Source: Raillietiella orientalis
Taxonomy: Eukaryota
NCBI GenBank assembly: GCA_036172245.1
Contig: JAYWIR010000182.1
Location: 1 to 38,910, forward strand
Length of the DNA: 38,910 nt
Reading direction: 5' to 3'
Part shown: piece after piece, positions 1 to 35,399 of the stretch
Layout of the letters: each line of letters opens with the position of its first letter
How positions within the stretch are numbered: position 1 is the first letter of the stretch
Translations under genes and position numbers: made by a program
The notes under the pieces: generated by a model
Database searches by the model: none
What the model was told of the DNA's origin: nothing
The model's input: the letters and a program-made list of their open reading frames with translations, nothing else

Positions 1-105
1 TGCGTTCCGGTGTTACGACAGGTCCTGTGTTTACGGCCGTGGTGGGGCCTTGTACCACGCATGTAAAGTTTAATAATAAACGCCCCGGGCGTACCCGGGT
101 GATAA
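1..105 (+). mobile_element. 3' UTR/terminus of a LINE copy whose body lies left of the window
   Basis: 1-105 aligns by eye with the 3' UTR of copy E (15228-15332: gacaggtcctgtgtttacggccgtg..gtaccacg..aataaacgccccgggc) and copy D (9562-9675). AATAAA at 75-80, hairpin at 84-99. Confidence 0.85.
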
Positions 106-790
106 CGCCGAATCCCCGGGGCAGACGTTGCACAAGGAACTGTTCGCAGAACTCTCGGTCCGAGTTCTTAAATAGGTCCCAATCCGCGAGACTCTGGAGG
201 CTGACGCCTCGCAGGAATTCGCGAAGATGTTCTTTCGTTCCTGACAGGCGCGTCCAGTCGCCTGGCATACACCAATCCCTGGATGGCGGTCGCTTGTCGC
301 GCGGGCGCATCTCGAAAACTAACCGGGAATGGTCCGACAGCGTCGATCCAAGTGTCCCTCGTTTTCCGACCCGTGGGCACAGGTCTTCGTCGAGGAAGAC
401 GTGGTCCACGCTGCTGACCATCCCGCTTATTTCTGTCAACAAGTTGCGCGCGCGCATGGCGGCGCTCAACTCGTTGATCGCGTTGCCCTGTGCTCCGGGC
501 TGATCTGAGAGCAGACGGACGTTGAAATCCCCTGCTATCAGATGCGCCTTTCGCACGTCCGCGTCCACCAGCCATTCGCGCTTCAAGGTTTCCAGTAACG
601 CGTTGCGCTGCTGGTATCCCTGTTTACCGCTAGGAGCGTACACATTGGTGACGATGAGGTCGATCGAATCGGACCATCTGAGAATCAGTTGGCCGATCCG
701 TCCGTCGTCCCCAAAGCGCACGCCGTTCACGGCCGCGTTAATGGCTGGCTTTAGGAAGAACGCGACCCAACAAGTGTTGCGGATGCAGCA
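106..790 (-). pseudogene. Copy A: APE endonuclease fragment with no RT, fused tail-to-tail to a + strand 3' end
   Basis: Hand translation of the minus strand (not in the ORF track): RNTCWVAFFLKPAINAAVNGVRFGDDGRIGQLILRWSDSIDLIVTNVYAPSG...AHLIAGDFNV...VDHVFL...LSDHSRL...QRLPRGFGV. APE motifs NVYAP, GDFN and SDH are present; it is closest to the copy E endonuclease. Confidence 0.9.
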
Positions 791-796
791 AAGTGC

Positions 797-3700
797 ATAC
801 CACGAATGCAGCAAAGTGCTGCCAGAGCTGCGGCTGGACTGAGAGCGTCCCGCACGAAGACAAGACTGAAGATACATTCAACATTGCCACCATCCGGTAT
901 CCGGAGGGCCGTTTTCAGACGATCTTAAAGAATCCGGACGGCAGGGCATTCAAGTAAGAGGTTAGAGAGCTACTCCCGCTCCCCACACCTGGCACACGCA
1001 GGATTTACTCTTCCCCGCGTCCAGTGGAAGCGGCGCGCGTTGCAGGGTAGACCCCAATGCAGCCACAGAAGCGCCGATTGTTGCCACTTCAGGGGGAGAA
1101 TCCTGGATCCAAGTAGAACCGGGGGCCACTTCAGGTCATCCAATCGAATGCCGAGCAGCTCGCCCCATCTTCTTAATCCACGCGGCTGGAGACTTGGGGT
1201 CGTTGCATCTGTCAACTCTCCCATGGTCCAGCCGCTCATCATCTTCTCTCTGCCTGCGATACGGCAGAGACTTGCCACCTTGGCTTCCGGCTTGCGTGAA
1301 GCGCCCTTTAAAGGAAGGGCATCGCCGTAACAAGAAGTGCGCCTTCCGCTTACGTGCAACTCGGTGGAAATTCAAGAATTTCACGGAGAGTGCGGCGGGC
1401 GTATAAGCCGACACGCAGGCAGTTCATCCGGTCTTCGCACCTTTGGTTCCGCTTAGCCCAGGTGCCAGCAGTCTCTTCCAGCCAAGCGGAGGAGTTGGGA
1501 GGGCCACAAACCATCCAGTCGTTCTCCTTTGCCAGGGTTGCCATGCGGTCGAGCATTAGACCGCATCTTCGCATCTTCCGGCCAGGGCACAGGAGAAACG
1601 ATGCGAGTTCTTCGCAGCGAGACACACGCCAGGCCAGGAGTCGGGCCGGAATGCACCAAGCGGTGCTCCACATCTTCGCTGCGATGGCGAGGGTCCGCCA
1701 TCGCAGCTGGATTTCCACGCGCTCCAGCGTCAGGATGCTGAGACCGCCGTCCCCACGCGGAGCGCACAAGTCCTTCAAGCGGACTCGGGCCCTCCCCTTG
1801 CCCCAAAGAGCTATGCGGAGGAGGTCCTTCGTCCGCTTTTTGATCCTCTCTGTGGGAGGGCAAACAAAAAGCAGGGAACGGAGGAGAGAAGCCGCGAACA
1901 TGTTTCAGACCGCGGCCCGTTCAGGCAGGAAAAACCTGAAGCCTCGGAACGGGCCGATAGCCTTCTCTACTTTTTGAAGGCAGCCGGTCCACGCTTCCGC
2001 AGGGGAGTAGTCCCCCAACGGCACACCAAAGTACTTGAAGTACCTCACCGTGGGGATCTTCAAACGGACCCAGTCTTGCTGTCCTGCCCACGCCGAACCA
2101 ACTGGCATCACGTACGACTTCGCCCTGTTCACCGTAAGCCCGGTAACTCGATTCAGCAGGTCGAAGAACTTCTCGATTGCTGAAGCCGGGGTGGACATAG
2201 GGAGCAGTAGCAGGAGGTAATCCGCATATGCTGAAACCGCAGGCGTTCCGACGCATTCATGCGGCAGGTGCGCCAGAGTTTCCCTGAACGCTTTCATTAC
2301 CAACTCAAAGTAGGTACTAAAGAGCAAGGGGCTCAGGCTGTCTGCCTGTCGGATCCCACGTCGCACCGGCACGCCGTGAACAGTATGCCCGCTGAAAGTA
2401 ACATTGATTAGCACATCGCGCCAGCTAGAGCGCAGATAGGCCAATAATGAGGCCGGGAAGCGGAAGCGTTCCAAAAGCTCCAGCAGGCGATTCTGGTCGA
2501 CGCTGTCGAATGCTATACGAAAGTCGACAACGACCGCAAATGCTCCCTCCCCCATCCGACCATCTGTCGCATGACTTACGGACTTACCGGAATTCCCGGT
2601 GCGCATCAAGCCCCTTTCGTGTTGGAGCTCTAGCCAGGTGGAAGCGTGGAACAGGTTCGCCTGCATGCTTCGCCCCGGAACAGCATACGTCTGTTCCGGG
2701 CTGATGAAGGCGTTTGCAACCCGACCCAAACGCTCAGCTTAAACCTTAGCTATCAACTTGGCATCCGCATCCACTATTGTGATGGGATGCCAGTTGTTCA
2801 TGCTCCTCAGATCTCCTCCCTTAGGGAGAAGCCGCTCCTTTGGCGAACGAAACGAGGCGGGAACGTCACCTGTCTCGCGTATCAGCAAGGTGAGTTGATG
2901 TACCAGGGGGGTTAGCTCAGCCGCGAAAGTTTGATAAAACTCCGCGGACAGGCCGTCCTCACCTGGAGCCTTTCGCCTCTTGAGCATTCCGATGGCCGAG
3001 ATGATCTCGCCCATCGTAAAAGACTCGTCGAGGGACTTTTTCTTCTCTTTCAAGATTGCAGGAGCGCCTTCCGGAAGCAGGATTCGTGATAAATCCCGCT
3101 CATGAGGCGTTCTTGCGAACAGGGAGGAGTAAAAACGCCGCAGCAGACCGCGGATCTGAGCGGGTGCCGAATGTTCCTGGCCCTGATCGTCCAGGAAGCT
3201 GGCCGATCCTTACTGCCAGGCTTGTTTCTTGGCTCCCGCTTTGTATTCCGCCAGCCTGCGAATGTCGGGGGTCCTGGCGTAACGGCGAGCCTGCAGATAG
3301 GCTAGTTAGTTTCGTACCCCGTCCCCAGATCCCGCAGGTAGGTGGTGCAGAGGGAACTGGTCGCAGAACTCCTGGACCAACCGTTCAAAGCGGTCCCAAT
3401 CCTGAAGTGTGTGCATCCTAAAGCTCCGTATGAACGTTCGGAGATGTTTCGGCGCGTCCGGGAGCTTCAGCCAGTCCCCTGGCAAACGCCACGCTGACGA
3501 GGGGGGGCCTCTGTCGCGCGGATGGATTTCAATCACGATTGGTCGATGGTCGGACAACTCGCACGGCAACTTGCAGCGCCTGCCCACACGAGTGCACAGG
3601 TGCTCGTTAAAGAACACGTGATCGATGTTGTCCTCGATCCCTGGTACACTGGCCAACAAATTACAAGTGTGCACCGCTGCGCACACCTCGTTGACCAGGT

Positions 3701-4211
3701 CACGCTCGTGATTCGGCCCAACCGGTTTCAGACGGAAGTCAAAATCGCCTGCAACCAGATGGGCATTCCGCACGCCTGCCTCGGTCAACCAGTCGCGATG
3801 GAGGGCAAGGAAAAATTCTTACCTGGCCCTCCTGTTCGTCAGGTCCGCTCCGCTCGGGGCGTAAACGTTCGTAATGATAAGGTCGATCGAGTCGGATCAG
3901 CTGAGAGTCAGCTGGCCGACACGACCGTGATCGTCGAACCGAACTGCACGGGCGGCGGTCTCGATGGCGGGCCGAAGCAGGTAGGCGACACCACAACTTC
4001 TCGATGTTCCACACCGATACCACAGCCACCCTCCGTAGATGCGTTCGATCTCCTGCGCTTGTTCTGCAGAGATCACTTGGATCTCCTGCAGCAGCACAAG
4101 GTCGAACGATCCTAGAATAGCGGCCCTGTCTCGTCTCCTGCCGGCGTTTATCATGCCGTTCACGTTCCAAACGGCGATGCGCACACGACGGCGGGAACAG
4201 ATTCCCGGCAT
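797..4211 (-). pseudogene. Copy B ORF2 (APE-RT-CCHC), disrupted
   Basis: ORF pieces 3897-4211 (WNVNG, LLQE), 3306-3788 (GDFD, IDH, SDH), 2739-3053 (KAPGEDGL, NWHPIT), 1905-2729 (AFDSVD, GIRQADSLSPLLF, YADY at 2217-2228, KYFGVP), 1350-1901 and 970-1359. Several in-frame stops. Confidence 0.92.
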
Positions 4212-5950
4212 TACTGCCGGGAAGATGACGGTGTGGGGGAACCCGCCTCTTCCGAGGCGGGTGAGATGACCATTAGGGTTTCAGCCTCCTCAACCACCTT
4301 GGGTACCTTTCCGGCTTCAACCCCCTCCATCTCCTCCGTGTCTGTGCGTGGTGGTCTCTCGGGTGACGATTCCCGGGATTCTCCCACGCTCATGGCACCC
4401 TCGCAGTCGGAAGTGATCTCCACGCCTTCGACCTGGAAAGGGTCTTTCCGGGGTTTGCTGGACTTCCTTCCAGCCTTCTGGCGGGGTGCCGCGGAGATGA
4501 AAACTTGATTTCCGGCATGCGCTCCGGGGTCGGAAGTTACCGAGTCCTCGGTGGAGTTCGGACGCCTCACTGCCTTTTTGCCAGCCTTAGAGGGGTCTGG
4601 CTGTAACGATGCAGCCAGCTCCTCCGCCGCACGCTCGAAGGCAGCGTCATCGATCACGGACTCGATGACGGACGCTTCCGCCGGTTCGCTCCCCACGCTG
4701 TTGACATTTTCAACAGTGGGTTGCTCGTCGGTAGCAGCGATTTCTACCTTGCGGCGTTCAGCGAGGACGCGTTCCACGACGACGCTGCATTCTTCGAAAT
4801 TCTCGCTAACCAGCTGTTTTTTATTTTGGTAGGCGAGCTTTTTTTCAATTCGTCGTTCTTTCTTCGACTTTTTCTTTTTCGCTGTGGCTTCTTGCCATGC
4901 CGACACCTTATTGCTTTTGTCGATCTTTTCGGCATCCGTTGCCGTGGTGTCGGCTGAAGCCTGGACCACGGGAGTGGGTGGCACAGCTTGAGCAGCAGCC
5001 TTCGCCGCCAGTTTTTTCTGTAGCAGTCGCGCGCGTTTTTTTAGGTTCCTCGCGGAAACCACGCGCACAGCAAATTGTGGACACACTTCCTTCGTGTGGT
5101 CCATTGTCCCGCATACCAGGCACCGTACGTTGGGGCACCTCCTTTTGAGGTGTCCCGATGTGTTGCAGAAGCCACAGTATTTGGACTTCCCCACGTACCA
5201 GAGGTCGACGCTTTACCCTCCGACCACCAGTTTGTGGGGAAGGGTAGAGCCCTCCCGAACGGTTACACGGTCAGCCGTAAGGCCGCACGGAACTGTGGTA
5301 TAGTCCTCGAAAGGACTAGGCATGGTCCATACTGCATGGAACGTGCCTTCTTTTCCCAACGCGGCGCGTAACTGTTCTTTCCGCATCCGCGCGGTAACTC
5401 GTAAAAGGTGGACCACCATACTGTGGTCCGCCGTAACGGGAAGGAGCCTGCGTGTCCCCATTACCACGGGGATTTGAAGCAGACGTTGGGCCAGATCTGC
5501 ATGTTTGCAGATCAGCTCTACGTAGTGCCCCCCGCTACGAATGGTCATAGCGCCGAGCTCCTCTCCTTTAACATCGAGAGCGCGCAACCCCTTCAAAAAG
5601 GCGCAAGCACTGTCAGCAGAATACAAATTTCCTACCTTGTAGAATAGTGATGGGTTATACCCCTCTTCCACGTAGGCAGATAATTCCGCCGCGGCTGCAG
5701 GCGATGGCTCCGACATGACGGCGCTCCACGCCCGCGCTGCAGCGGGGACCGGTTTTGTGGGGACGGACGCCCCCACCTTGTTCGCCACTGAAGGCGACGT
5801 TGCCGCCGCCCCCTGGCACTCCACCTTCTCTAGAGGCGACGTTGCCGCCGCCACCTGGCACTCCATTTCTTCAGGAGGCGACGCTGCCACCGCCCCCTGA
5901 CACGTACTGGTGGTCGTGTCAGGCATTGCTGCCTGATCGACCACCAACAC
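4211..5950 (-). pseudogene. Copy B ORF1 (gag-like, two CCHC zinc knuckles), one in-frame stop
   Basis: ORFs 5213-5950 and 4211-5194 are in the same frame, separated by TAA at 5213-5215. Knuckles CGFCNTSGHLKRRC and CLVCGTMDHTKEVC, followed by a K/E-rich low-complexity tail. Confidence 0.9.
5793..5904. repeat. 42-nt (14-aa) tandem repeat, about 2.7 units, in the ORF1 N-terminus
   Basis: ggcgacg(t/c)tgcc units start at 5793, 5835 and 5877. They encode CQGAVAASPPEEME / CQVAAATSPLEKVE / CQGAAATSP. The same array is at 8101-8212. Confidence 0.9.
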
Positions 5951-6036
5951 ACACGAAGCCTACACCTAGGGACGGTTCCCTGCACGAGGAGCACCGAGGA
6001 AACACGTCCGCTCTAGCCGACGTAAAGCTTGCGATT

Positions 6037-8339
6037 TTCACCCGGATTTCTCCGAGTCGTTTATTAAAAAAATAAACTATGTAAACAAATTATTAATGGC
6101 TGTGGCAATGCTCCAGCGAGAAGCTAAGAACCACGGCGCCTTCCAATTCAACGGTTTCTAGAACGGTACGGTCCACCAAGGCAGCAGGGGAAAGGGAAAA
6201 AACAAAAAAAATAAACAAAAAAAAACAAAGGATGGGAGGGAACGGGAAGGGATCACTGTTGCTCCTGGGGACGCATCATCCCTCTCAGGATGCTGGCAAG
6301 CTCTTGTTTGTTGTGAACATCCTGGAGTAGCCATCGCGACGCCCTCCTCAGGAATTCGGAGGCGCACTGGATGGCTTCCTGATCGCTAGGTCCTCCCGTC
6401 GCCTTGCTCCAGGCGGCGACGATCCCACGAAGGAAGCACAAGGCTGCTATCGAGGACGCTCGCCGCAGGGCGTCAGCAACGAAAAAGGCTTTTAGTGCGT
6501 CCCTGTAGTTGCTGCAAGGGATACCGATGGCCGCGGCAAAGCGGAACCAAAGGGGCCGAAGGGCAACACAATCCACTAGGAGGTGGGGGAGGGACTCCCG
6601 TTCCCCGCACCTCACACAATTTGGATCCACCGCTCCCCATGTCCAGTGGTGACGATGGGCGTTGCAGGGGAGTCCACAGTGTTGCCACAGGAATGCCGAC
6701 TCTTGCAATTTTAGAAGGAGGATGGAAGTGTTCATAAGAATCGGGAGCCACTTCAGATGTTCAATCGGAACACCCAGCAGCGCTCCTCAGCGCAGAAGTC
6801 CATTAGGAGGCGTACTCGGGGACGCAGCATCAGTTAGCTGGCCCGTCTTCCACTCTCTCTGCTTCTTCTCCTTCCCGGAGATTTTTATTGTAACCTCCCA
6901 CTTCGCCGCAACATCGCTGTCCTGATGTTTCACTAGGGAGTCCAGCGCAGCAGCGAAGGGGGTTCTTCCTGACCACGCTCTCTTCTTAGGATCCTCCAGG
7001 ATCTCACGGAGCGTGCAACTTTTGTAACACCCAAACAGGAACCTTCGTTCCTGATGGGAGGGTTGCAAGCCGAGCTGTCTCCACGTGCGAACGGTTTCCT
7101 GCAACCAGGCACTACCGTTCGCGGGGATACAGGTGATCCATCCTTGATTTTTCCTTGCCAGCGCAGCCATCCTCCGTAGCTGAAGCCCACATCGGTTGAT
7201 GCGGCTTCGATGGAGTGCAAGAAACGACGTTAGTTCCGTCTTGCCGGTGGCTTGCTGAAGGAGGAGACGTGCAGGGACGCACCAACAGGTGCATCACAAC
7301 TCCGGCACAATTGCCAAAATTCGGAACTGGAGCTACTGCTCCAGCCGCTCCAATGTCAGGAGGCCGAGACAACCGTCCCGACGCGAAGCGCACAAGTCCT
7401 TCAAGCGGACTCGGGTCCTCCCGTTGTCCTAAAGGGCGATACGGAGGATGTCCTTCGTCCGCTTTTTGATCCTCTCTGTGGGGGGGCAAACAGAAAGCAG
7501 GGAACGGAGGAGAGGAGCCGCGAACATGTTCCATACCGAGGCCCGTTCAGGCAGGAAAATCCTGAAGCCTCGTAACGTGCCGATAGCCGTCTCTACATTT
7601 TGAAGGCAGCCGGACCACGCTTCCGCAGTTGAGTAGTCCCCCAACGGCACACCAAGGTACTCGAAGTACCTCACCGTGAGGATCCCTAAACGGACCCAGT
7701 CCGTCTGCCCTGCCCACGCCGCACCAACTGGCATCACGGACGACTTCGCCCTGTTCACCGTAAGCCCGGTTCCTCGATTCAGCAGGTCGAAGAACTTCTC
7801 GACCGTTGAAGCCGGGGTGGATATAGGGAGCAGTAGCAGGAGGTCGCCCGCATATGCTGAAACAGCAGGCGTTCAGGCGCATTCATGCGGCAGGTGCGCC
7901 AGAGTTTCCCTGTACGCTTTCAGTACCAACTCAAAGTAGGTACTGAAGAGCAAGGGGCTCAGGCTGTCTCCTTGCCGTATCCCACGTCGCACTTGCACGC
8001 CGTGAACAGTATGCCCGCTAAAAGTAACATTGATTAGCGCATCGCGCCAGCTATAGCCGGTTTTGTGGTTGCGGACGCCCCCACCTCCTTCGCCACTGAA
8101 GGCGACGTTGCTGCCGCTTCCTGGCACTCCACCTTCTCTAGAGGCGACGTTGCCGCCGCCACCTGGCACTTCATTTCTTCAGTAGGCGACGTTGCCACCG
8201 CGCCCTGACACGTACTGGTAATCGCGTCAGGCATTGCTTCCTCTTCGACCACCACCACACACGAAGCCTACACCTAGGGACGGTTTCCGGCACGAGGAGC
8301 ACCGAGGAAACACGTCCGCTCTAGTCGACGTAAAGCTTT
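6037..8339 (-). mobile_element. Copy C: internally deleted LINE (5' UTR and ORF1 start fused to the RT C-half, CCHC finger and complete 3' UTR)
   Basis: 8057-8339 matches B 5749-6030, and about 7440-8053 matches B about 1815-2427. YAGD at 7843-7854, finger CVRCGERESLPHLLVDC, ORF2 stop at 6253-6255, U-rich tract at 6197-6229, AATAAA at 6060-6065 (minus strand). Confidence 0.9.
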
Positions 8340-9675
8340 CGACTGCGTCGACCAGGAGCTCCTCTTGGAGCTCCTGGAACGCTTGGGATTTCCATCCGTC
8401 TTGCTGGCCTACCTGCGCTACTGCAGGCGCTTTGCGCTCATCAATATCAATTTTAACGGCCGACACGTGTTCGGCGTGCCGGTTCGTCGTGGCATTCGGC
8501 AGGGTGACACCCTAAGCCCCCTGCTCTTCAGCATCTACTTTGAGTTGGCGCTGAGAGCATACAGGGAGACTTTGGCAACCCTGCCGAGCTCGTGTTCCGG
8601 CACGCTTGCCGTGTCGCCCTATGCCGACGATCTTCTGCTCCTGCTTCCCGGGTCCACCGCGGCATCGGCGCTCCAGGATTTCTTCGAGTTGCTATATCGT
8701 GGGACAGGCGTCCAGGTAAACAGGACGAGGGCGGAAGGCGCACCCCTTGTTACGGCGATGCCCTTCCTCCAAAGGGCGCTTCACGGAAGCCGGAAGCCAA
8801 GGTGGCAAGTCTGCTGCCGTATCGCAGGCAGAGAGAAGATGATGAGCGGCTGGACCATGGGAGAGTTGACAGTTGCAACGACCCCAAGTCTCCAGCCGCG
8901 TGGATTAAGAAGATGGGGCGAGCTGCTCGGCATTCGATTGGATGACCTGAAGTGGCCCCCGGTTCTACTTGGATCCAGGATTCTCCCCCTGAAGTGGCAA
9001 CAATCGGCGCTTCTGTGGCTGCATTGGGGTCTACCCTGCAACGCGCGCCGCTTCCACTGGACGCGGGGAAGAGTAAATCCTGCGTGTGCCAGGTGTGGGG
9101 AGCGGGAGTAGCTCTCTCACCTCTTACTTGAATGCCCTGCCGTCCGGATTCTTTAAGATCGTCTGAAAACGGCCCTCCGGATACCGGATGGTGGCAATGT
9201 TGAATGTATCTTCAGTCTTGTCTTCGTGCGGGACGCTCTCAGTCCAGCCGCAGCCCTGGCAGCACTTTGCTGCATTCGTGGTATCGTGGCGGCCTGGAAT
9301 GATGCCGAAGATGAAGACTGCATCGTGAGGGACGTCATCGAGTATGCTTCGCGCTTCCTGCAGAGAGCTACCCGATAGCCCCATCTAGGAAAGCTGAAAA
9401 TGGAACTAGAAGGCATCCTGCAAAGAATGGGCGCTCCCAGCAGTTTTCTGTGATCCCTTCCCGGCCCTCCAAACTTTTTTTTTGTGGTTTGTTTTTCTAT
9501 TATATTTTATTTTTGTTTTTTCCCCCATCCCCCTCCACTGCCGAGGAGAGCCACACCGGGCTGCGTCTTGGTGTTCCGGCAGTTCCGGCATTCCGTGGCC
9601 GTCAGTGGGGCCTTGTACCACGTTCTGTATTGACCGTTGAAATGTTTTTAAACAACGTCCCGTCGTATCCGGGTG
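8333..9675 (+). mobile_element. Copy D: 5'-truncated, internally deleted LINE with complete 3' end
   Basis: Starts at the RT motif KAFDCVDQ, with GIRQGDTLSPLLF and YADD (8620-8631). It jumps in frame at about 8730 to the C-terminal region and has stops at 9109-9111 and 9154-9156. ORF2-end TGA at about 9451, then a T tract and the terminal motif at 9650-9674. Confidence 0.9.
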
Positions 9676-9699
9676 GCATCGCCGAATCCCTTGGCGAGT

Positions 9700-9712
9700 G
9701 GACGTGTGTTTC
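9700..9712 (+). promoter_or_regulatory. Conserved 5' UTR GGACGTGT motif (candidate internal promoter element)
   Basis: GGACGTGT(GT)TT is seen in E (9700), B (6000-6009, minus), C (8308-8317, minus) and H (20204-20215, minus), with variants in F (gcacgcgttttt) and G (ggaggtgttttt). The function is inferred only. Confidence 0.45.
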
Positions 9713-9785
9713 CTTCGCTCCCGAGTGAGTCGACAGGAAGCGGTTTTTTCTTGTGCTGTTTGGTGTGGAACATCGTTGGTGTCCG

Positions 9786-11542
9786 ATGGCAGCGATGCCT
9801 GAGGACTCCACGATGGAGGTAGGTGTGGGGGAGGCTTGCCCACCCCCACAGCCTACAGAATCAGGGGCGTTTGCCCCGGAATCGCCCTCGCCGCTCAAGG
9901 AGAGGAGCTGGAGCGCCATGGTGCCCGCGCCGGGCGCGGAAACCATGGCCGAGATGGCGGCCTACCGGGCAGCTGGGTACAAGCCCAGCTTGGTTTACCA
10001 GGTAGGCAATCTCTTTGACGGGCGAACTGCACGCGCTTTTTTGAAAGCGCTGCAGAACGCCAAAGTGTTGAAAAAGGACCTTCACGGTCTATCCGTGCTC
10101 AGCGGGGGTCAGCGCGTCGAGGTTGTCTGCAAGGACATCACCTTGGCGCAAAGCTTGATTAAAACCCCGCTGAACGTGGACGGACGCAAGATTCTACCAG
10201 TCACCATGGACCGCTCCGTAGTGGTCCATCTGACAGGGATCACCAGCCGCATGACGCGGTCTGCGGTTGGTGATCAGTTAAGAAAGTATGGGGATGTTCA
10301 CGCGCTATGGCCAAAGGCCACAATCTTCGATGGCTACGATAGCCTTTTTGGAGAGCAGGCCCCCGCGCGCGTGACGGTGAAGGAGAGTAAGCTTCCCCAC
10401 AAACTAGAAGTCAATGGCGAAGCCGTAGACCTCTGGTACGTGGGGAAACCCCGCTTTTGTGGCTACTGCAATGCAGTAGGACACTTGCGCAAGTTGTGCC
10501 CGAACATTGTGTGCCACTTATGCGGGGAGAAGGGCCACGTACGCCGCGTATGCCCTAAACGCCCCACTCCGGTGCCGCCTGCTGCAAAAAAAGCACAGGC
10601 AAAACGCGGTAAACTGGTCGAAAGACCAAAAAGAGATACTGGCCGGCAGCAGCCGCTAGCCCCTGTTCCTCCCACACAGGCGTCGGAAGAAAAACCCTCC
10701 GAAGACGCGGGAGACCAAGACGGCTGGCAGCTGGTCAAGGTCAGGAAGGAGAAAAAGGTGCCCCCGCGGAACCCGCGAAAGCGGTAAAAAAGACAGCCGG
10801 CAAGGCGAAAAAACCTGGGCCGCGCTCTAAGACCATGCGGGAGTGTACGGTAGCACTGGAGCGCATAGCTGTTCCCGAGATTGCCACCCGGGGCGACGAG
10901 CCTTCCCTCGCCGTTTCCGCCGCGCCCGAGGTTCGCGACGGCGAACCCTCTGTTTACACAGAGGGTCAGCCGCGCGAAATAGCGACGGTCGAAGCCGAGG
11001 ACGCCGCGTTCACTCAGGCGGCGGAGGAACTCGCGGCCACGCTGGCCGATCGTGGGAACCCCTCGCGCAAGGCCGTGCGAAGGCCGGCTCTTGCGAAAAA
11101 GGCCCCCACAGGTGAGTCCGAACTGGGGGCCGGAAGTGCATCCTCCTCCTCAAAGGCACCCCCCAGGAAGTCGGAACGCATGTCCCAGAAACCCAGGGGG
11201 CGCCTCCCCTCCACCAGCGAGGAGGAGAAGCAGGAAGCTAGCGGTAGCGTGTGAATCCCGGAGGGAGAACTCCCACGCTCGGAAGCCGTCGAGCCGGCCA
11301 TTCCCATGGAGGAGGGTGAGCAGGGGGGCGAAGTCCTCCCTGCAGTCACCGAGCCTGAAAGGCACGCCCCCATGGAGGAGGGCCAACAGGTAGGCGCGAC
11401 CCCACCTGAGGGTGACCCGTTCGACGCGCCGTTACCCATGGAGGAGGGGGAAAAGATGCACGCAGCGCCTGACCCTCCTCCTCCACCTAGCGTGCCGCCC
11501 CAACAGGTGGCGGACGCCGCATCGCCATCTTCCCAGGAATAA
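9786..11542 (+). pseudogene. Copy E ORF1 (zinc-knuckle protein), one frameshift and one stop
   Basis: ORFs 9753-10787 (CGYCNAVGHLRKLC, CHLCGEKGHVRRVC), 10835-11254 (frameshift near 10770-10790) and 11306-11542 (in frame after TGA at 11252-11254). Confidence 0.88.
11304..11460 (+). repeat. 66-nt (22-aa) PMEEG repeat, three units, in the ORF1 tail
   Basis: cccATGGAGGAGGG with ATG at 11306, 11372 and 11438. Degenerate homologues lie near 24565-24710 and 35080-35160. Confidence 0.85.
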
Positions 11543-14500
11543 CACCTGGGCTCGCCAGTCGCCGTCGGATTCGCGCCGCCTGTTGCAACGTCAACGGGCT
11601 GCGCGACGACGGTAACAGGCGAAATACGGCCGACACCCTGCGTGAGCTCGACCTGGCCCTGCTGCAGGAGATCCACGTGATCACCGCAGCAGACGCCCGG
11701 GAGATCGAGACGATCGCGGGGGGTCGGTTGTATTGGCGGTGCGGCCTCCGCAACACTTGCGGTGTCGCGTTCTTCGTGAAGCCGGCCATCGACGCTCCCG
11801 TGAAGGGCGTGCGCTTCGATGACGTCGGTCGGGTCGGTCAGCTGATTCTCAGCTGGTCCGTCTCGATCGAATTGATCGTCACGAATGTGTACGCCCCCAG
11901 CGGTAAACAGGGATACAGCGATTGTACCAGGCTGATGGAATCCCTGAAGCGCGACTGGCTGGCGGACACGAACGTGCGGAAGGCTCACCTGATAGCGGGA
12001 GATTTCAATCTCCGTCTGCTAACAGGTGAGCCAGAAACACAAGAGAACGCGATGAACGAGTTGTGCGCCGCCATGCGTGCGCGCAACTTGTTCGCGGGTG
12101 AGAGGGGAATGGTCCGCAGCATCGACCACGTCTTCCTCGACGCTGACCTGTGTTCACGGGTCGGCAAACGGGGTAGGGTTGCGTCGACGTTTTCGGACCA
12201 TTCCCGGTTAATTTTCGAGATGCGGCCTCGCGACAAGGGACCGCCATCCAGGGATTGGCGTCTGCCAGGGGACTGGACGCGACTCTTAGGTGCGGAAGAA
12301 CACCTTCGCGAATACCTTAGAGGCGTCACGCTCCGGAATCTCCAGGACTAGGACCTTTTTAAGGAATCGCTCCGCGAGTTCTGTGAGCAGTTCCCCCTGG
12401 ATCGCCTGTTCCTTGGATTCCGCGTGGGTGTTTGCAACCATCGGGCCTATTTACAGGCTCGTAGGTACGAGAGAACCCCTAATGTCCGTCGCCTGGCCGA
12501 GTACCGCGCCGGGGCCGAACGCCAAGCCTGGCAATCCGGGTCGGCCAGCTTGCTGGACGACCAGGGCCAGGAATGTTCGTCCCCGGCGTCATTACGGCAT
12601 CTTGTGCGGAGTTTTTATTCCTCCCTTTACGCCAGGGAGCCCCCGGATCGAAACGCCTGTCTGCCCTTGCTTCCGGATGGCGCCCTGTCAATAGGGGAGG
12701 AGGAGATGGGAAGCCTCGACGAGTTTTTCACCACCGGCGAAATTCTCGCCGGTTTCAAAAGGCTCAAGAGGCGTAAAGCTCTAGGGGAAGACGGCTTGCC
12801 CGCGGAGTTCTTTCAGAGCTTCGCGGAAGAGCTGGCACCCCTGCTGCTTATGTTGATCAGGCTGATCCGAGACGAAGGCAATGTTCCCGCCTCGTTTCGG
12901 TCAGCCAGAGTGAGGCTCCTTCCGAAAGGGGGAGACCTCAGGGATTTAAAGAACTGGCGTCCGATCACGATCGTGAATACGGACGCCAAGTTGATAGCAG
13001 GGCTATGGGCTTCGCGTCTGGGGCAGGTGGCAGAATCCGTAATTAGCCCGGAGCAGACTTATGCTGTTCCCGGGCGAAGTATGGATGCCAACCTCTTCTT
13101 CGCAAGCACATGGGTGCACCTGCAGAGAAGAGAAAAGAAAGGGATAGGGGAAGTCGGCAACCCCACATTGGGGACGCCAGCCGGGCTGGGAAGGGACCCC
13201 CGGGGGGGGAAGGGGGCCCTAGCGCTCGCAGTCGATCTCCACAAGGCGTTCGACTGTGTAGACCAGGAACTCCTCTTGGAGCTCGCGGGTCGCATGGGCT
13301 TTCCACCCTCCTTGATTGCCTACCTGCGCTTTTGCTGGCGGAATGCGATGATTACCGTCTCTTTCAGCGGTCACAAGGTGCATGGCGTGCCGGTGCGGCG
13401 GGGCATAAGGCAGGGAGATAGCCTCAGCCCCCTGCTCTTCAGCACCTACTTTGAGTTGGTGCTGAGAGCGTACAGGGTGACTCTGGCCCCTTTCCCGAGC
13501 TCGTGCCCCGGCACGCCCACCGTTGCAGCGTACGCCAACGATCTTCTGCTCTTCTTGCCAATGTCCACCCCGGCAAAGGCGGTCGGAGACTTCTTCGATC
13601 TGCTCAGCCGCGAGACCGGACTGCAGGTTAACAGGGCGAAGTCGTCGGTTGTGCCAATAGGTGCGGCGTGAGCAGGGCAGCAGGACTGGGTCCGTCTGGG
13701 GATCCCCACGGCGAGGTGCTTCAAGTACCTTGGTGTGCCGTTGGCGGACTACTCCCCTGCGGAAGCGTGGTCCAGCTGCCTCCAAAAAGTCGAGACGGCG
13801 ATCCGCTCATTCCTGGGAGGCAATTTTCACTTGCCGGAACGTGCCGCGGTTTGGAACGCCTTCGCGGCCCCCATCCTCCGGCCGTTGCTTTTTGTTTTTC
13901 CCTCCACCGTGGAATCCAAGAAGAGGACGAAGGACCTCCTCCGTATCGCCCTTTTGGGCAAGGGGAGGCCCCGATTCCCACTGAAGGACTTGTGCGCTCT
14001 GCGTCGGGACGGCGGTCTTGGCCTCCTGACGTTGGAGCGCGTGGAGAAGCAGCTGCGGTGGCGAACCCTCGCCATCGCTGCGAAGATGTGGTGCACCCCT
14101 TGGTGCACTCCAGCCCGCCTCCTGGCCAGCCGTGTGTCCCGGTGCGATGGACTCGCGTCTTTTCTTCTCAGCCGTGGCGGGAAGATGCGAAGATGCGGCC
14201 TACTGCTCGGGAGCATGGCAACGTTGGCCAAGGAGAACAGCTGGATGGTTTGCTGCCCCGCCAACTCCCCCGCCTGTCTGGAGGAGAATATTGGAACGTG
14301 GGCAGTAGTTAACCAGAGACGCCACGAGACGTGGAATCGTCTCCGATGCAGCTTCTACGCTTGCTGCACGCTGTGGAATCTCCTGAAGAGTCCAGCAAGA
14401 TGCAGGTGGGCAGATACGACCTGCCTAGCTACGGCGCTGCCCTTCCTAAGGAGGGCACTTCACAGCACCCGGACGCCAAGGTGGCAAGTCTCCTGCGGCA

Positions 14501-15127
14501 TCGAGGGACGCGAGAAGTTGATCAGCGGCTGGACAACAGGAGAACTGGCCGACGCCACGACTTCGAGCGTCCAGCCGCGAGGATTAGCAAGATGGGGCGA
14601 GCTGCTGTCCATCCCCAGGGATGAGCTGAAGTGGCCCCCGGTGATGAAAGAATCCAGGATCCTGCCCCTTGAGTGGAAGAGTCGGCGTTGCTCCGGTTGC
14701 AGTGAAGTCTTCCCTGTAACGCGCGCCTCTTCCACTAGACGAGGGGAGCTGTGGATCCTGCGTGTGCCAGGTGAGGCTAGAGGGAGTCGCTTGCCCACCT
14801 TATTGGGGATTGTGCTGCCCTCCTACTTCTTTGGGAACGGTTCGGGACGAAGCTCGGGCTCCCTACGGGCAGCACCCCCAGAGACGTTCTTCGACTCCTG
14901 TTCGTGAAATACGCACTGCAGCCATCGCAGTCTTGTGCTGCGTCCGTTGCATCGTGGCGGCATGGAGCGACGCCAACAACGAAGGAGTGAATGCAAAGGC
15001 GAGAGATGTCATCCCGTATGCCCAACGCTTCTCGCGGAGAGCTGCCGGATGGCGTTAAATGGAGAATATGCAGACAGACCTCGAGGGCTTCGTTCGACGG
15101 ATGGGCCCTCTCCACAGCGAACAGTGA
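11542..15127 (+). pseudogene. Copy E ORF2 (APE-RT-CCHC, about 1190 codons), disrupted
   Basis: The start ATG is degraded to ACA. Motifs CNVNG, LLQE, NVYAP, GDFN, IDH, SDH, KALGEDGLPAEFF, NWRPIT, KAFDCVD, GIRQGDSLSPLLF, YAND (13531-13542) and KYLGVP. In-frame stops at 12349-12351 and 13669-13671, frameshift near 14678. Confidence 0.93.
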
Positions 15128-15301
15128 TCCCTTCCCTGCCCTCCAACTTCTTTTTGTTTCTTTCTTTTTATTTTGCTTTTTGTCTTATCCCCATCCCCCT
15201 TCGCTGTCGGAGAGTGCCACGCCGGGCTGCGTCCCGGTGTCCCGACAGGTCCTGTGTTTACGGCCGTGATGGGGACTCGTACCACGAATGAAGAGTTTAC
15301 A

Positions 15302-15326
15302 AATAAACGCCCCGGGCTTTCCCGGT
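15302..15326 (+). terminator. Element 3'-terminal AATAAA plus stem-loop
   Basis: AATAAAcgcCCCGGGctttCCCGGT. Homologues at 75-99, 6040-6065 (minus), 9650-9674, 22623-22647 and 35406-35430 (minus). Confidence 0.7.
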
Positions 15327-15332
15327 TGACGA

Positions 15333-17961
15333 CGCCGAAGCCCGACGGAAGACGTTCCAGGGGAAACTGGTAGCAAAACTCGCGGAGTGAGCACTTCATT
15401 TCTCCCCAGTTCGCGAGCGTCTCATGATGGAATCCTCGCAGGAAGGCGCGCAGATGTTCGCGCGCTCCTGCGAGTCGCAACCTGTCCCCCGGCAGGCGCC
15501 ACGCTTCAGAGGGTGGAACTCTGTCGCGCGGATGGATGTTGATCACTAGCCGAGGGTGATCGGACAGCTCCGACGCAATTGCTCCTCGATTCCCCACCCG
15601 CGTTCACAAGTGGTTATCGAGGAACACGTGGTGGATTCTGCTAGTCATCCCGGCTTCATCGGCCAACATGTTGCGTGTGTGCATAGCCGCACAGAACTCG
15701 TTGAGCAATTGTGCTCTTATGTCGGGCGCTTCCGTCAGTACGCGGACGTTGAAGTCTCCCGCTATCAGATGCGCCCGCCGCACGCCTGCTTCGGCTAGCC
15801 AGTCTCGCCGCAGGGCTTCAAAGAACGCAGTGCTTTCTGCGCGCCTGTGGCTGGGGCAGGGCGTTTACACGTTCGTGACTACGAGTTCGATCGATTCGGA
15901 CCACTTGAGTACCAGTTGTCCGATTCGACCTTCCTCGTCGAACTGTGCACTGCGCACCGCATTGGCGACGGCCGGCTTGAGCAAGGAGACCACTCCCCGG
16001 GAGTGGTCTCCTCCACCACGCCAAAGTAGCCTCCACCCTGTGAACCTCTCGATTTCCTGGACGTCCTCTGCTCTGAGGGCATGCACCTCTTGGAGAAGTG
16101 CCAAGTCGAAAGGTTGCAGGGTGTCGGCCACGCTACGCCTCTTGCTTTCGCTACGCAGCCCGTTGACATTCCAACAGGCGATACGCAGCTGCCGGCAAGA
16201 GGCGATTCCATGCATCATACTAATGATGGTGGTGGCGTGTGCATTGCCGCCTCCTGTTCGGGAGGCGGCTCGTCGTTGTCCATCTGCGGTGGTGGCGTTT
16301 CGGCAACGACCGGAACGTCTGCAGCCGGACTGAGGTCGATAGGAAGGACGGACCGGATGCTGTCGATAGAGGGATCCCGCGACCTCGCGGACATCGCCTC
16401 CTCGCTATTCGAGCGCATCTCCTCCTGCTCAGCCTGAGGGGGAGCGACGCTCATAGGGTTGCGCGACTTCCGGCCCGCCTTCCTCTTCCGAAGGGCGACG
16501 GAGGGAGGGTTTCCGGCTTCCGCCTCGAACCCTGAAGTTTCCGGGCCCTTCACTTCTGCCGGACGTCTGACGGCCTTCCTTGCAGCCTTTGGCGTCTGCA
16601 TTAAGGTGGCCGCGAGTTCCTCCGCCGCCTTCGTGAAGTTTTTCTCGTCGCTGCTGCTCGCGTGTTTGTCGCAGGATTCCTGCGGCGGTTCGGTGGCGTT
16701 CGCGACGATTGCGGGATTCGCGTTCGCCGATCGACGCTCGATCGACGGAACGCGCTCGATTGTAACGCGGCATTCCTTTATGCACTCGCGCGGCGGAATT
16801 TTTGGTTTGCCGACCGCGGGTTTCTTAGGAACGCTCGCGTTCTGATTTTTTGAGTTTTTTGTGGGGATTTTTTTTGTTTTGTTTTTAATTTGTTTGGGTT
16901 TTTTGCCGGAGACGATTTTCCAGCCTTCCTCGTCGGCATTTGGATCAGAAGCCTCCTTTTGAGGCTCCTGCTCCTTGTGCACGACTTCTTCTGAAGTCGG
17001 CTTTCCATCGCTCTTTGCTTTAAATTCTGCCTGCTTCTCCTCATTTGTCGAAGGGGCTGAAGGCGTTGTCGCGGCGTTTTTCGGGCACACAGCACTAGTG
17101 TGGCCCTTCGCGCCGCAGGTTGGGCATGTGGCATCCGGGCATCTCTTTTGAAGATGCCCGAATGTGTTGCACAGACCACAGTATTTTTCCTTCCCCACGT
17201 ACCAGAGGTCGACGAGCTCGTCGTTGACTTCAAACTTGTGGGGAAGTTCTTTGTTTTCACGGAGAGTTACGCGCGCGGCCACTCGCCCACTGAATGCGCC
17301 TCGATAAGTAAAGGCGTTGGGCTGTTACCACATCGCGTATATCTTCGCGAATTTGTTGATTTCAGTGCGGATGGCTTCATCGGTCATCCGCACCGTTGTA
17401 CCCGTGAGGTGGATCACCATAGAGTGATCCACCGTGTGTGGGAGGAGATTCCGCCCTTCGAACGGAACGGGCGTGCAGAGCAGTTTGTGTGTGAGCGCTG
17501 CATCTTTGCAGATCAGCTCCACGAACTGCCCGCCGCTCCGAATCGAGAAGCAAAGAATCTCCTCGTCAGAGATTCCCATCCTACGGATGGCGTTTCCAAA
17601 TTTCCGCGTTGTAAGCGGTGAATAAAGATTTCCTACCTTGTAAAGGAGGGCTGGGTTGTAGCCCTCCTTTATGTAGGCCTGCACTTCGGCGGCCACGTCC
17701 GGCGGAGCCGCCGCGGCCACCTTATTCCACGCCCTCGCCGGGGTGGCGGGGGCTGATTTTCTGGTGGGGCATGACCCCACCTCCATAAGTTGGGGAGACA
17801 TGGGCCTCACGTCTCCCGTCGCAGGTACTGCGGCGTCTTCAGGCATTTGTGCCTTCGAACGGCAGCACTTCCACACACGAAAACTTCCTTCTCGGTTACG
17901 CTCGCTGGAGCTCACGAAAAACGCGTGCGACCGCGGCGCAGGTTCGCCGCTCGTTAACCCG
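15333..17961 (-). mobile_element. Copy F: 5' UTR, ORF1 and complete APE with no RT, convergent with E
   Basis: ORF1 17846-16215 has one stop at 17325-17327 and knuckles CGLCNTFGHLQKRC and CPTCGAKGHTSAVC. APE 16218-15333 has WNVNG, LLQE, GDFN and SDH and ends at ERLPSGFGV, then runs antisense into the E 3' UTR. Confidence 0.92.
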
Positions 17962-24185: not shown

Positions 24186-24189
24186 TGGT

Positions 24190-26600: not shown

Positions 26601-27374
26601 TGCAAATCATCATGAAAACCTGATACATGGAATTTCGCAGCTTTCAATTACATAGCGAGTCTCAGAATTTCAGATGACTTGATTGCCACTATGATTGGAG
26701 TAAACTTCTTTACCGGTCAATTGAGTTCAAGAGAGCGCCACTTTTATACACCAGAGTAAAAACGAAATACATTTTCAATTCCACTATAATGCTCTCTAGT
26801 GTGTGATGAGCTCTTTGAGGGAGCCGCTTGATGATTGGTCATTACGACTGCATAGAGTTATGCTTCAGAAACATCGACTTCTCTAATGAGACTTCTTCAG
26901 GCGGAGCCCTTATCTCTGCGTAGGTGGCTCCTAACATCTCCGGTTCCCACCAAGATTTCGTCACTTTACAGTAGGCATTCTTTTGGTGAAAACGATTGTA
27001 AATGCGCTGGCAAAGCAATGGTTTCTCTACAAAAAGTAACAGTTGAATTTCGTATTATTCTATCACCACTAGAATTCTCAAGACGCCTTGGGAAAGCCAA
27101 TTTCAAAAATTGCTAATTGCACTGAAAAAATCGGATTCTTTTACTTGCAAGCGAATATTTTAAAGGCTGTGATTTTGTCAGTGTTTTCTTGGTAAAATGA
27201 TGAGGTCATCATTAAACCGTCACCTTGCACGACAAATAATGACTTTCATGCATCACCACGGTACAAGCAGCAAGTAGACATGATTATTAGTAGTATGTTT
27301 ATTTTCAGTTCATTCCTTCACTACAAGCCAAAAAACATGAAAGGCTGTTTTCTCTACTCATGATTTCGGTTTCC

Positions 27375-34889: not shown

Positions 34890-35395
34890 GGCTGTGAGCT
34901 TATCCTCATCCGCGGAAACAACCCCCAGAAGTCAGAACGTCAGTCTAAGTAGCCGAATAGATGAATTACAGCACGCTGCGAGGCAAATGGGCAAGCACTT
35001 GAGCGAAAGAGGAAAACGTGAGAAAGAATGTTGCGAATCCATCACGCTCCGACGTCGCGCTGCAGGGAAGGTCCAGGGACGATGGTGAGCAGGAGAGTGA
35101 CTTCCCACACCTTCCATGCGACCCAGCTGATCAGTCGATTCCATGGAATAGGAAGAACAGCAACAGGAAGCACATCGTCCTGCTTGCGCTTCAAAAGATC
35201 GGGGTGCGTAAGTGGCCGTAGAACTTTCCAAGGAATAATGCCTGGATTCGAAAGTCACTGACACATCCGCGTGGTCAATTCGAACGTCAGAAGACTGTGC
35301 AAAGACGACAAAAGACGAGACACGGCCTCTACGCTGCGTGACTTTCACCAGTTGCACCTGTAGGAGATCCATGTGATCACCACATAAACGTCCAA
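34890..35395 (+). mobile_element. Copy L: degenerate ORF1 tail and APE N-terminus
   Basis: TAATG overlap at 35236-35240, followed by MPGFESH*HIRVVNSNVRRL..KRRDTASTLRDF..L*EIHVIT, homologous to the starts of the B and E ORF2. Confidence 0.75.
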
Positions 35396-35399
35396 AAGA

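Follow-up and report, generated by a model that had tools for sequence, protein, structure and literature searches.

Poly(A)-free 3′ ends and nested, probably site-selective insertion of L1-type LINEs at a locus of Raillietiella orientalis

We analyzed a stretch of 38,910 nt (the window) of contig JAYWIR010000182.1 (assembly GCA_036172245.1) from Raillietiella orientalis, numbered throughout from its first letter. The decayed LINE copies found there, their 3′ tails, the resident elements that adjoin these tails (hosts) and the spacers between units are collected in Table 1.

Table 1. LINE copies, tails, junctions and spacers in the window.
Feature	Position	Strand	Details
Tail of copy A	75..103	+	AATAAA 75-80, hairpin CCCGGG-cgta-CCCGGG 84-99, then TGAT; last ~100 nt of A in the window
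Host P1, D-like LINE	104..799	-	ORF2 aa 312->81; tblastn 70% identity, E 1e-95; 80% nt identity to D
P1 junction			codons ...LPRGFGV adjoin tail of copy A
Copy B, second lineage	797..6009	-	5′ UTR start GGACGTGTTTCC 6009-5998, ORF1, ORF2 aa 6-1123; 3′ end cut at ~797
C-to-B spacer, 30 nt	6010..6039	-	between C hairpin and B 5′ UTR; shuffle test z 13.5, 0/500
Tail of copy C	6035..6065	-	AATAAA 6065-6060, hairpin ACTCGG-agaaat-CCGGGT 6057-6040, then GAAAA
Copy C, internal deletion	6040..8317	-	5′ UTR and ORF1 start 8317-8057 (92% to B 5749-6034) joined to RT aa 614 through to tail
Copy C insertion site			antisense in RT of Cp, beside KAFD codons
Copy Cp	8318..9677	+	RT from ..ALVDVKAFDCVDQ to tail
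Tail of copy Cp		+	AAACAA 9650-9655, hairpin CCCG-tcgtatc-CGGG 9659-9673, then TGGC
Target-like part of the 26-nt Cp-to-D spacer	9678..9699	+	antisense reads ..PLAKGFGD, the ORF2 segment behind tails A and D
Copy D, full length	9700..15330	+	5′ UTR from GGACGTGTGTTTCC 9700-9713
Copy D ORF1	9729-10787	+	CCHC zinc knuckles: one by Pfam zf-CCHC, second by eye
Copy D ORF2	11491-15291	+	single frame, 3 stops
Tail of copy D		+	AATAAA 15302-15307, hairpin CCGGG-cttt-CCCGG 15312-15325, then TTGAC
Host E, LINE of third lineage	15331..17928	-	ORF2 aa 316->2, ORF1, 5′ UTR start 17928-17915; tblastn 52% identity, E 6e-90
E junction			codons ...LPSGFGV adjoin tail of copy D
Tail of copy H	22623..22647	+	body from 20230; AATAAA 22623-22628; weak hairpin CGG-cgcaa-CCG, or CCCGG/CCGAG with C.A mismatch
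Tail of copy Fm	35397..35430	-	body 36196-38155; AACAAA 35430-35425, hairpin ACCCG-gcttgaa-CGGGT 35422-35406, <=9 nt more
Host of Fm, endonuclease fragment	35214..35396	+	aa 8-70, ..L*EIHVITT..; tblastn E 9e-8, local alignment score 69

Pfam searches detected an APE endonuclease (Exo_endo_phos, 1.5e-10) and a reverse transcriptase (RT; RVT_1, 4.9e-21) in ORF2 of copy D, and the same pair was found in copy B. A nucleic-acid-binding motif was recognized in ORF1 of D (zf-CCHC, 6.4e-5), with CCHC patterns visible in D, B and F. The best solved relative of the RT was human L1 ORF2p (2e-43 vs. 6e-14 for R2), while the endonuclease matches at 0.01 or better were of the L1 type only. Relatives retrieved from databases carry APE, RT and zf-RVT, and plant L1-type proteins are among them; the LINEs of land plants belong to L1 and RTE only (PMC3472496). 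Protein likeness to solved structures and database relatives thus supports the L1-like character proposed in the earlier note and a probable placement in the L1 group in the broad sense, Tx1 included. A metagenome scan with the C-terminal part of D ORF2 gave 89 pattern matches, none of which was confirmed by tblastn, and a protein atlas search returned generic RT clusters only.

All six stem-loops that the earlier note had assigned to LINE 3′ ends were present. Each of these ends reads AA(T/C)AAACG, or AAACAACG in one case, followed by a short GC stem-loop and approximately 4–5 nt more, the stem-loop lying directly behind AATAAACG, AACAAACG or AAACAACG in all six tails. The terminus is laid out as AAUAAACG, a 4–6-bp GC hairpin (arms CCCGG / CCGGG, loop of 4–7 nt) and 4–5 terminal nt, with the element ending 22–25 nt past the AAUAAA hexamer without poly(A). 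Neither an A-run longer than four nor a simple repeat was observed behind the hairpin in any of the six tails, so that the poly(A) typical of the L1 group is missing, as had been claimed.

Comparison of the lineages showed that a 27-column tail block retains 59–89% identity vs. 20–41% over approximately 96 upstream columns of the 3′ UTR (15 pairs). Conservation of the tail far above that of the remaining 3′ UTR is the pattern of stringent-type 3′ ends. A fuzzy motif composed of AATAAACG, CCCGG, a loop and CCGGGT, with one substitution tolerated per part, matched five of the six ends, vs. a mean of 0.03 and a maximum of 1 in 300 dinucleotide shuffles; the end that it missed is the one with AAACAACG, at 9659–9673. 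The generic combination of AAAC with a GC hairpin close by is no rarity (18 observed vs. 11.3 ± 3.1 in 100 shuffles), which indicates that the conserved specific block, and not the presence of a hairpin, is distinctive. We therefore read the motif as the genuine 3′ end of a set of related lineages of L1-group LINEs. A search for extra tails found AATAAACG at 19310–19317 and AACAAACG at 23776–23783, both on the minus strand and both without a hairpin behind. In a metagenome scan, 12 loci (L001–L012) matched the tail pattern; none codes for anything related to ORF1 or ORF2 (best E 1.6), and they were taken as unrelated matches. A likeness of the tail to the uninterrupted target upstream of the site, approximately 9/29 by eye, was dismissed as chance.

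The hairpin had been described as covarying, and this label is not supported: in the six-sequence alignment none of the six stem pairs alters on both sides (26 of 33 cells pair, 78.8%), and the observed covariation score, calculated from six sequences only, was reached by 500 of 500 shuffles. Fold z-scores of the tails were -1.65, -0.88, +0.46, -4.03, +0.86 and -1.64, clearly better than shuffles in one of six (copy C, -4.03); the value of +0.86 belongs to copy H, whose stem at 22634–22644 has 3 bp only, or four of five pairs with a C.A mismatch. Both the lack of covariation and the weak fold statistics of the other five tails would be expected if the block merely combined a polyadenylation signal with a downstream GC-rich element, or were a palindrome at the DNA level, with no RNA hairpin read by the RT and the absence of poly(A) being due to target-end priming or to loss of a short A-run. 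The arms CCCGG and CCGGG are each nearly their own reverse complement, and a repeated DNA motif would therefore mimic a hairpin; this reading also draws on the near-chance frequency of the generic combination and on the up to four A's that trail two of the hairpins (GAAAA in C, AATAAAAG in H). Yet arms and spacing are kept while loops differ and the 3′ UTRs are otherwise unalignable across lineages, and the element ends are fixed at 4–5 nt past the stem. Moreover, the single stem substitution in copy C yields a G.U pair, not a mismatch, and the helix is lengthened by an A-U pair in copies C and Fm. We consider a signal without RT recognition doubtful, with perhaps a minor share of the probability.

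Examination of the flanks showed that the tails ending at 103 and 15330 are each joined without a gap to the ORF2, read in antisense, of a different host LINE. Both joints fall at the same codons (GFGV), tails A and D entering P1 and E behind the same Val codon. ORF2 homology of the hosts reaches to 4–5 nt behind the hairpin (REFCEQFLVQRLPRGFGV in P1, REFCYQFPLERLPSGFGV in E), and the host letters CGCCGAA begin at 106, 9680 and 15333. A public DNA run containing 0.09 of the sampled words provided contigs that, placed at 80% likeness, span the entire stretch; no RNA run containing sampled words was listed among the public runs. One of these contigs connects 9678 with 12427 in opposite orientation, its shorter side being 107 letters long, and adds, among the joints listed, one more junction at that codon, the third. 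Independent insertions at one nucleotide position of a defined target were thus found at three junctions only, in a site-selectivity sample of six tails and one outside contig.

The two junctions within the window might instead be segmental duplicates of one old composite, as positions 1–300 and 15228–15527 align as a single direct repeat with 72% identity. We regard this as highly improbable, since likeness amounts to 86% between tails A and D vs. 68% nt identity between the adjoining hosts, which come from different lineages (P1 is 80% and E 66% identical to D), and since the junction in the outside contig has a Cp-like tail, and over 54 nt the Cp tail shares only 74–78% identity with those of A and D.

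Beside the minus-strand copy Fm lies a plus-strand endonuclease fragment; hence the Fm tail likewise adjoins an antisense ORF2, at a site other than GFGV. In the flank of copy H, the plus strand matched ORF2 aa 890–922 only weakly (score 42), and the antisense linker found no match; a by-eye reading of this flank as antisense ‘AYQQ’ was dropped after local alignment.

Two true head-to-tail junctions, C to B and Cp to D, were identified, in line with the arrangement first described. At two junctions the hairpin had been said to run straight into the next 5′ UTR. We found instead that the hairpin is followed by 30 nt (6039–6010) at C to B and by 26 nt (9674–9699) at Cp to D before GGACGTG, the start common to the 5′ UTRs, is reached. 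The C-to-B spacer and GGACGT, the first six letters of the B 5′ UTR, jointly match the host sequence that borders the 5′ end of C itself (30 of 33 aligned nt), and this host sequence continues antisense into the RT of Cp (..ALVDVKAFDCVDQE; codons ..ALxDVKAF). Between Cp and D, the spacer is similar to the sequence behind tail A (z 5.2, 0/500 shuffles) and, weakly, to the right flank of D in host E (z 3.1, 5/500 shuffles). The units are thus separated by one target copy (TSD), the likeness to D's own right flank being weak in the case of Cp to D. Target-derived spacers, together with two tails of the same lineage at the same antisense ORF2 codons, fit re-use of a target site better than homing to the 5′ UTR, and the proposal that the elements insert in front of their own 5′ end is the poorer fit, given that the spacers are pieces of antisense ORF2 target and that tails lie at the same codons in other LINEs. 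Probably, the arrays arose by repeated landing at one preferred spot inside the genes of other copies.

Because the left spacer of D is only weakly like its right flank, the Cp-spacer-D arrangement is not a simple double insertion into E, and array exchange or transposition of a dimer has to be added. This weak match (z 3.1) is what would be expected if Cp-spacer-D had arisen outside host E, i.e., if tandem units had propagated as such, either by retrotransposition of a multi-unit read-through RNA or by spread of a founding dimer through unequal exchange or gene conversion, the junction being inherited. Recent exchange inside the nest is indicated by a 553-nt inverted stretch (797–1349 vs. 8731–9284) with 94–99% identity, and a large R1 array is thought to have been expanded by unequal exchange (PMC5932611). 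Propagation of tandem units could also account for approximately 60 nt before the 5′ UTR of E that belong neither to F nor to E and contain ccgggtt. The earlier note had pointed to these letters (17955–17961) in front of another 5′ UTR; the letters are there, but no recognizable tail precedes them, the supposed remnant fails the motif search, and its spacer, a candidate target copy that we dropped, resembles no target (z 1.3 or less). No clear target copy was seen at the 5′ ends of E and F. The two junctions, however, belong to different lineages, each with a spacer that matches its own target, and the 5′ flank of C is continuous with host coding sequence. Inheritance of a ready-made junction is therefore unlikely in our judgment.

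On balance we favor an account that joins a tail-less 3′ terminus, site-selective insertion and arrays built through a re-used target duplication. The 3′ end of the RNA would be set by AAUAAA through cleavage just past the hairpin, and the element's own ORF2 protein may recognize the terminal module in a ‘stringent’ manner and initiate target-primed reverse transcription from one set base; an A tail would consequently not be copied. The endonuclease would be site-selective, a nicking specificity suggested by the observed junction positions: the D-type lineage is predicted to nick the antisense strand of ORF2 in other LINEs at the GFGV codons of the linker between endonuclease (EN) and RT, the B/C lineage to insert beside the RT motif KAFD, and a third lineage behind the endonuclease motif QEIHV. 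Insertion would duplicate approximately 22–33 bp of target and recreate the landing site upstream of the resident copy, and a second insertion at the recreated site would place two units head to tail, separated by a single copy of the target, owing to which a hairpin would never directly touch the next 5′ UTR. More tentatively, and as a possibility that we would not yet lean on, the elements may form a poly(A)-free guild of animal L1/Tx1-like LINEs that shares a ~29-nt AAUAAA-hairpin terminus determining where the RNA ends and which base is copied first, uses lineage-specific antisense ORF2 sites (GFGV linker, RT KAFD, EN QEIHV), lives almost only inside one another and builds arrays via the 22–33-bp target duplication.

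Tail-less L1-type ends and repeated site-specific insertion are known behaviors in a new guise, having counterparts in R1 arrays, Tx1-mobilized SINEs, stringent L1 tails and Zepp nests. Stringent LINEs of the L2/CR1 type, such as UnaL2 and ZfL2, have a 3′ stem-loop near the end and no long poly(A). The elements described here share both traits, but no 3′ microsatellite follows their hairpin and their nearest identified RT relatives are L1-type. Structured 3′ ends can no longer be regarded as alien to the L1 clade, as conserved 3′ hairpins are known from the monocot ‘1a’ lineage (LINE1-1_ZM) and from Chlamydomonas L1-1_CR, and 5 of 15 green-algal L1 families lack a 3′ repeat (Ohshima, 2012, PMC3472496). 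Like these stringent L1-clade LINEs, the present copies combine an L1-group RT with a short, well-conserved 3′ end able to form a hairpin, recognition by the RT being presumed in both; unlike them, they lack an A tail, include AAUAAA in the block and show no compensatory change in six copies (PMC3472496).

In R1 arrays, identical 33-nt duplications of rDNA lie between the tandem units, and double insertion is the explanation given for them (McGurk and Barbash, 2018, PMC5932611). R1 of arthropod 28S rDNA resembles our elements in being APE-type and site-specific and in forming head-to-tail units approximately 30 nt apart (33 in R1, 22–33 here); in contrast, our elements land not in rDNA but in other LINEs, on the antisense coding strand, and among the solved relatives compared their RT is nearest to L1 ORF2p. 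Members of the Tx1 clade, which are likewise L1-related animal LINEs with a fixed place inside another transposon, insert in Tx1D (Tx1L), in Mariner-N4_AMi (Tx1-Mar) and in LTR elements (Tx1-8_Crp, Tx1-4_AMi), and tandem SINEU-3 copies occur ‘sandwiching a TSD’ (Kojima, 2015, PMC4494074). Those tandems, however, are SINE passengers; SINEU, the passenger of Tx1-Mar, bears poly(A) tails, and LINE ORF2 is not reported as a target in the portion of PMC4494074 used. Zepp and ZeppL of green algae are likewise GC-rich L1-type LINEs, and by landing in copies already present they, too, build nested and tandem clusters (Craig et al., 2021, PMC8226300; Blanc et al., 2012, PMC3446292). Yet Zepp has (A)n tails (Table 1 of PMC3472496), of which there are none here, and its arrays consist mostly of 5′-truncated 3′ ends, with no fixed codon-level site described in the parts of those papers used.

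If the RT reads the tail module, these elements would represent an animal L1-group lineage with a strict, poly(A)-independent choice of template, and this would bear on how frequently stringent and relaxed priming have switched among L1 relatives. Antisense sites in the genes of other LINEs would be a new ‘safe harbour’ besides rDNA, snRNA genes, microsatellites and DNA transposons, and fixed landing sites of this kind would explain the growth of GC-rich islands made of LINEs only. For annotation of the Raillietiella orientalis genome, the tail block can be used to mark true 3′ ends and nest boundaries. A possible decayed seventh tail lies at 24180–24206 and was left out of the six-tail counts.

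GC content is 55–62% in the first 26 kb and the last 4 kb of the window, parts that are made up of decayed, related non-LTR retrotransposon copies (table; letters are our own), and 40–44% in between. The segment at 26500-35200, flanked on both sides by GC-rich LINE nests, has this lower GC content and no LINE similarity and presumably represents ordinary DNA of the host; for its ORF at 32729-33415 no match was found in Pfam.

LINE copies recognized in the window
Copy	Position	Strand	Content
A	to 103	+	tail only; last ~100 nt inside the window
P1	104-799	-	ORF2 aa 312 down to 81
B	797-6009	-	5′ UTR, ORF1, ORF2 aa 6-1123
C	6040-8317	-	internally deleted
Cp	8318-9677	+	RT through to tail
D	9700-15330	+	full length; best copy
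E	15331-17928	-	ORF2 aa 316 down to 2, ORF1, 5′ UTR
F	17977-19112	-	ORF1 alone
H	20230-22647	+	RT through to tail
Fm	35397-38155	-	RT through to tail
	22753-26316		further, more distant LINE pieces

The 5′ UTR of copy D starts with GGACGTGTGTTTCC and its ORF1 carries CCHC zinc knuckles (one matched by Pfam zf-CCHC, another CCHC pattern recognized by eye in the translated sequence), while ORF2 (11491-15291, ~1,266 codons) encodes an APE-type endonuclease and an RT. Only three stops interrupt the single frame of this ORF2 along its 3.8 kb, which makes copy D much younger than most of the copies around it. The best solved-structure match to the elements was human LINE-1 ORF2p (2e-43, vs. 6e-14 or weaker for R2 proteins), and the endonuclease domains among these matches were of L1 type only. 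Database relatives of 25–29% identity combine APE and RT, in many cases with zf-RVT, and include plant proteins. Since the LINEs of land plants are L1 and RTE only (PMC3472496), these matches support the assignment of the elements to the L1 group. Two copies have three tandem units of 66 nt in the stretch from ORF1 to the endonuclease domain (11291-11464, 24551-24722), and every unit holds CCCATGGAGGAGGG (peptide ..PMEEG..). In copy C, RT aa 614 follows directly on the 5′ UTR and approximately the first 70 ORF1 codons (8055-8317, 92% identity with B); such an internal-deletion derivative could be a non-autonomous form.

The 3′ ends of these elements carry a terminal block. All six stem-loops listed in the earlier note were found in place, directly behind AATAAACG, AACAAACG or AAACAACG, and its observation that poly(A) and simple-repeat tails are missing also held, with at most four A's and no simple repeat behind any hairpin. 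From the coordinates, the elements end 22–25 nt past the AATAAA hexamer. A fuzzy pattern of the block matched five of the six tails, missing the one with AAACAACG, vs. a mean of 0.03 and a maximum of 1 in 300 dinucleotide shuffles. Identity between lineages is 59–89% in the 27-column block, whereas the ~96 upstream 3′ UTR columns show 20–41%, the level of unrelated sequence. Nothing else indicates as strongly as this contrast that constraint acted on the block during the active life of the elements. The distant copy at 22753-24206 may end in a seventh tail, now decayed (24180-24206: AATAAA, a broken 5′ arm, GCGGGTG).

The description of the hairpin as covarying was not borne out. In the six-sequence alignment no pair is changed on both sides, one pair goes from C-G to U-G, and the observed covariation score was reached by 500/500 column shuffles. 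Pairing is possible in 26 of 33 cells (78.8%); the stem of copy H has only three contiguous pairs, and fold-energy z values against shuffles were -1.65, -0.88, +0.46, -4.03, +0.86, and -1.64. Generic "AAAC plus GC hairpin" arrangements number 18, vs. 11.3 ± 3.1 in shuffles. As the arms CCCGG/CCGGG are nearly their own reverse complement, a repeated DNA motif and an RNA helix are indistinguishable with these data. Still, the persistence of both arms and of their spacing, despite loops that vary in sequence and length (4–7 nt), and the outer A-U pair added in copies C and Fm favour a helix. The six tails thus demonstrate conservation of the block and not covariation of its stem. In the minimum-energy fold of four of the six tails, AAUAAAC pairs with an upstream GUUUA (4–7 bp, AU-rich; 68-81, 15295-15308, and, on the minus strand, 6076-6059 and 35445-35424), giving two adjacent hairpins; the Cp tail has a CGUUG/CAACG pairing instead.

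Tails A and D are each followed by the antisense strand of ORF2 of another LINE, host P1 (104-799, 70% identity, E 1e-95, tblastn) and host E (15325-16266, ORF2 down to aa 2, 52% identity, E 6e-90, tblastn), respectively. Up to 4–5 nt behind the hairpin, the antisense readings are REFCEQFLVQRLPRGFGV in P1 and REFCYQFPLERLPSGFGV in E; uninterrupted copies read on as ..GVCNHRAYLQ (D) and ..GVRN*LAYLQ (B). It could be argued that the two junctions are copies of one composite. Strongly against this stand the hosts, which belong to different lineages and are only 68% identical, vs. 86% for the tails, so that A and D are separate insertions at one homologous site. A third junction coincides with these two: one contig of X1, a public DNA sequencing run, joins 9678 to 12427 on opposite strands, placing a Cp-like tail plus 5 nt at the same antisense ORF2 codon. 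X1 was the only public run found. The assembly may derive from it, but this joint is absent from the window's own joints. Tail Fm adjoins a plus-strand fragment at endonuclease codons (..EIHVITT) that lie in antisense to it. The possible seventh tail is followed by another copy's inter-ORF region in sense orientation, so that a sense-strand target may be used by another lineage.

At the head-to-tail junctions, the hairpin was proposed to run straight into the next 5′ UTR. Instead, spacers of 30 nt (C-to-B) and 26 nt (Cp-to-D), at the junctions that the earlier note named C->B and D->E, precede the shared 5′ UTR start. Upstream of C's 5′ UTR, the RT reading frame of Cp continues in antisense (TSALVDVKAFDCVDQELLLEL), and the C-to-B spacer with B's first six 5′ UTR bases (GGACGT) shows 30 matches to the last 33 nt of this flank (z 13.5, 0/500 shuffles). 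This alignment makes clear where the spacer of the B/C lineage comes from: it repeats C's 5′ host flank, the antisense RT of Cp. The Cp-to-D spacer encodes ..PLAKGFGD in antisense and, like tail A's flank, contains CGCCGAATCCC..GACGT (z 5.2, 0/500 shuffles); its likeness to D's own right flank is weaker (z 3.1, 5/500 shuffles). At both junctions the units are thus separated by a single copy of the target of their lineage. In a third proposed case ccgggtt does precede the 5′ UTR of copy E, but there is no tail motif before it and no target likeness after it. The feature is real and was for the most part correctly observed in the earlier note; its covariation and its direct junctions needed correction. 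Four 5′ UTRs (5998-6009, 8306-8317, 9700-9713, 19095-19112) start GGAC-G(T/G)G..GTTT(TT)CC. The intact hosts of tails A and D also have GACGT, 27 and 25 nt past the hairpin, respectively; microhomology between cDNA end and target may thus set the 5′ junction.

These elements are best explained by a tail-less terminus of stringent type together with site-specific re-insertion. The anatomy and conservation of the block, the three coinciding junctions and the target-derived spacers are directly shown; beyond them, we infer that the block would act as a terminal recognition and processing module: AAUAAA would direct cleavage directly behind the hairpin, and the structured end would be bound by the ORF2 protein for target-primed reverse transcription from a fixed base. 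In sibling ORF2s, the endonuclease would nick the antisense strand at a lineage-specific site, and a 22–33 bp staggered cut would yield a target duplication. This duplication would present the site once more, upstream of the copy already in place, so that arrays would grow head to tail.

Conserved 3′ hairpins are known for L1-clade LINEs of a monocot lineage and for Chlamydomonas L1-1_CR, and 5/15 green-algal L1 families are without any 3′ repeat (PMC3472496). The same pattern of a target copy between units is described for R1, with 33-nt rDNA duplications between tandem units (PMC5932611), and for the Tx1 system, with tandem SINEU-3 copies "sandwiching a TSD" (PMC4494074). The latter source also gives other transposons as targets of Tx1 families, and Zepp is described as targeting its own copies, resulting in nested and tandem clusters (PMC8226300, PMC3446292). 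Keyword searches limited to one open-access collection yielded no paper in which codons of LINE ORF2 serve as a specific target for a LINE. The elements described here differ in combining an L1-like RT, an AAUAAA-hairpin end that lacks an A tail, and landing sites in antisense coding motifs of other LINEs.

The two flanks of copy D do not match, indicating that exchange among arrays, or dimer transposition, also occurred. A 553-nt inverted repeat (797-1349 vs. 8731-9284, 94–99% identical) links the 3′ parts of B and Cp, while all other repeat pairs in the window are 92% identical or less; it shows that such exchange, or an assembly error, is present in the nest, and could stem from recent gene conversion, from the breakpoint of an inversion or from misassembly. 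At 797, copy B lacks its last ~365 nt and the tail.
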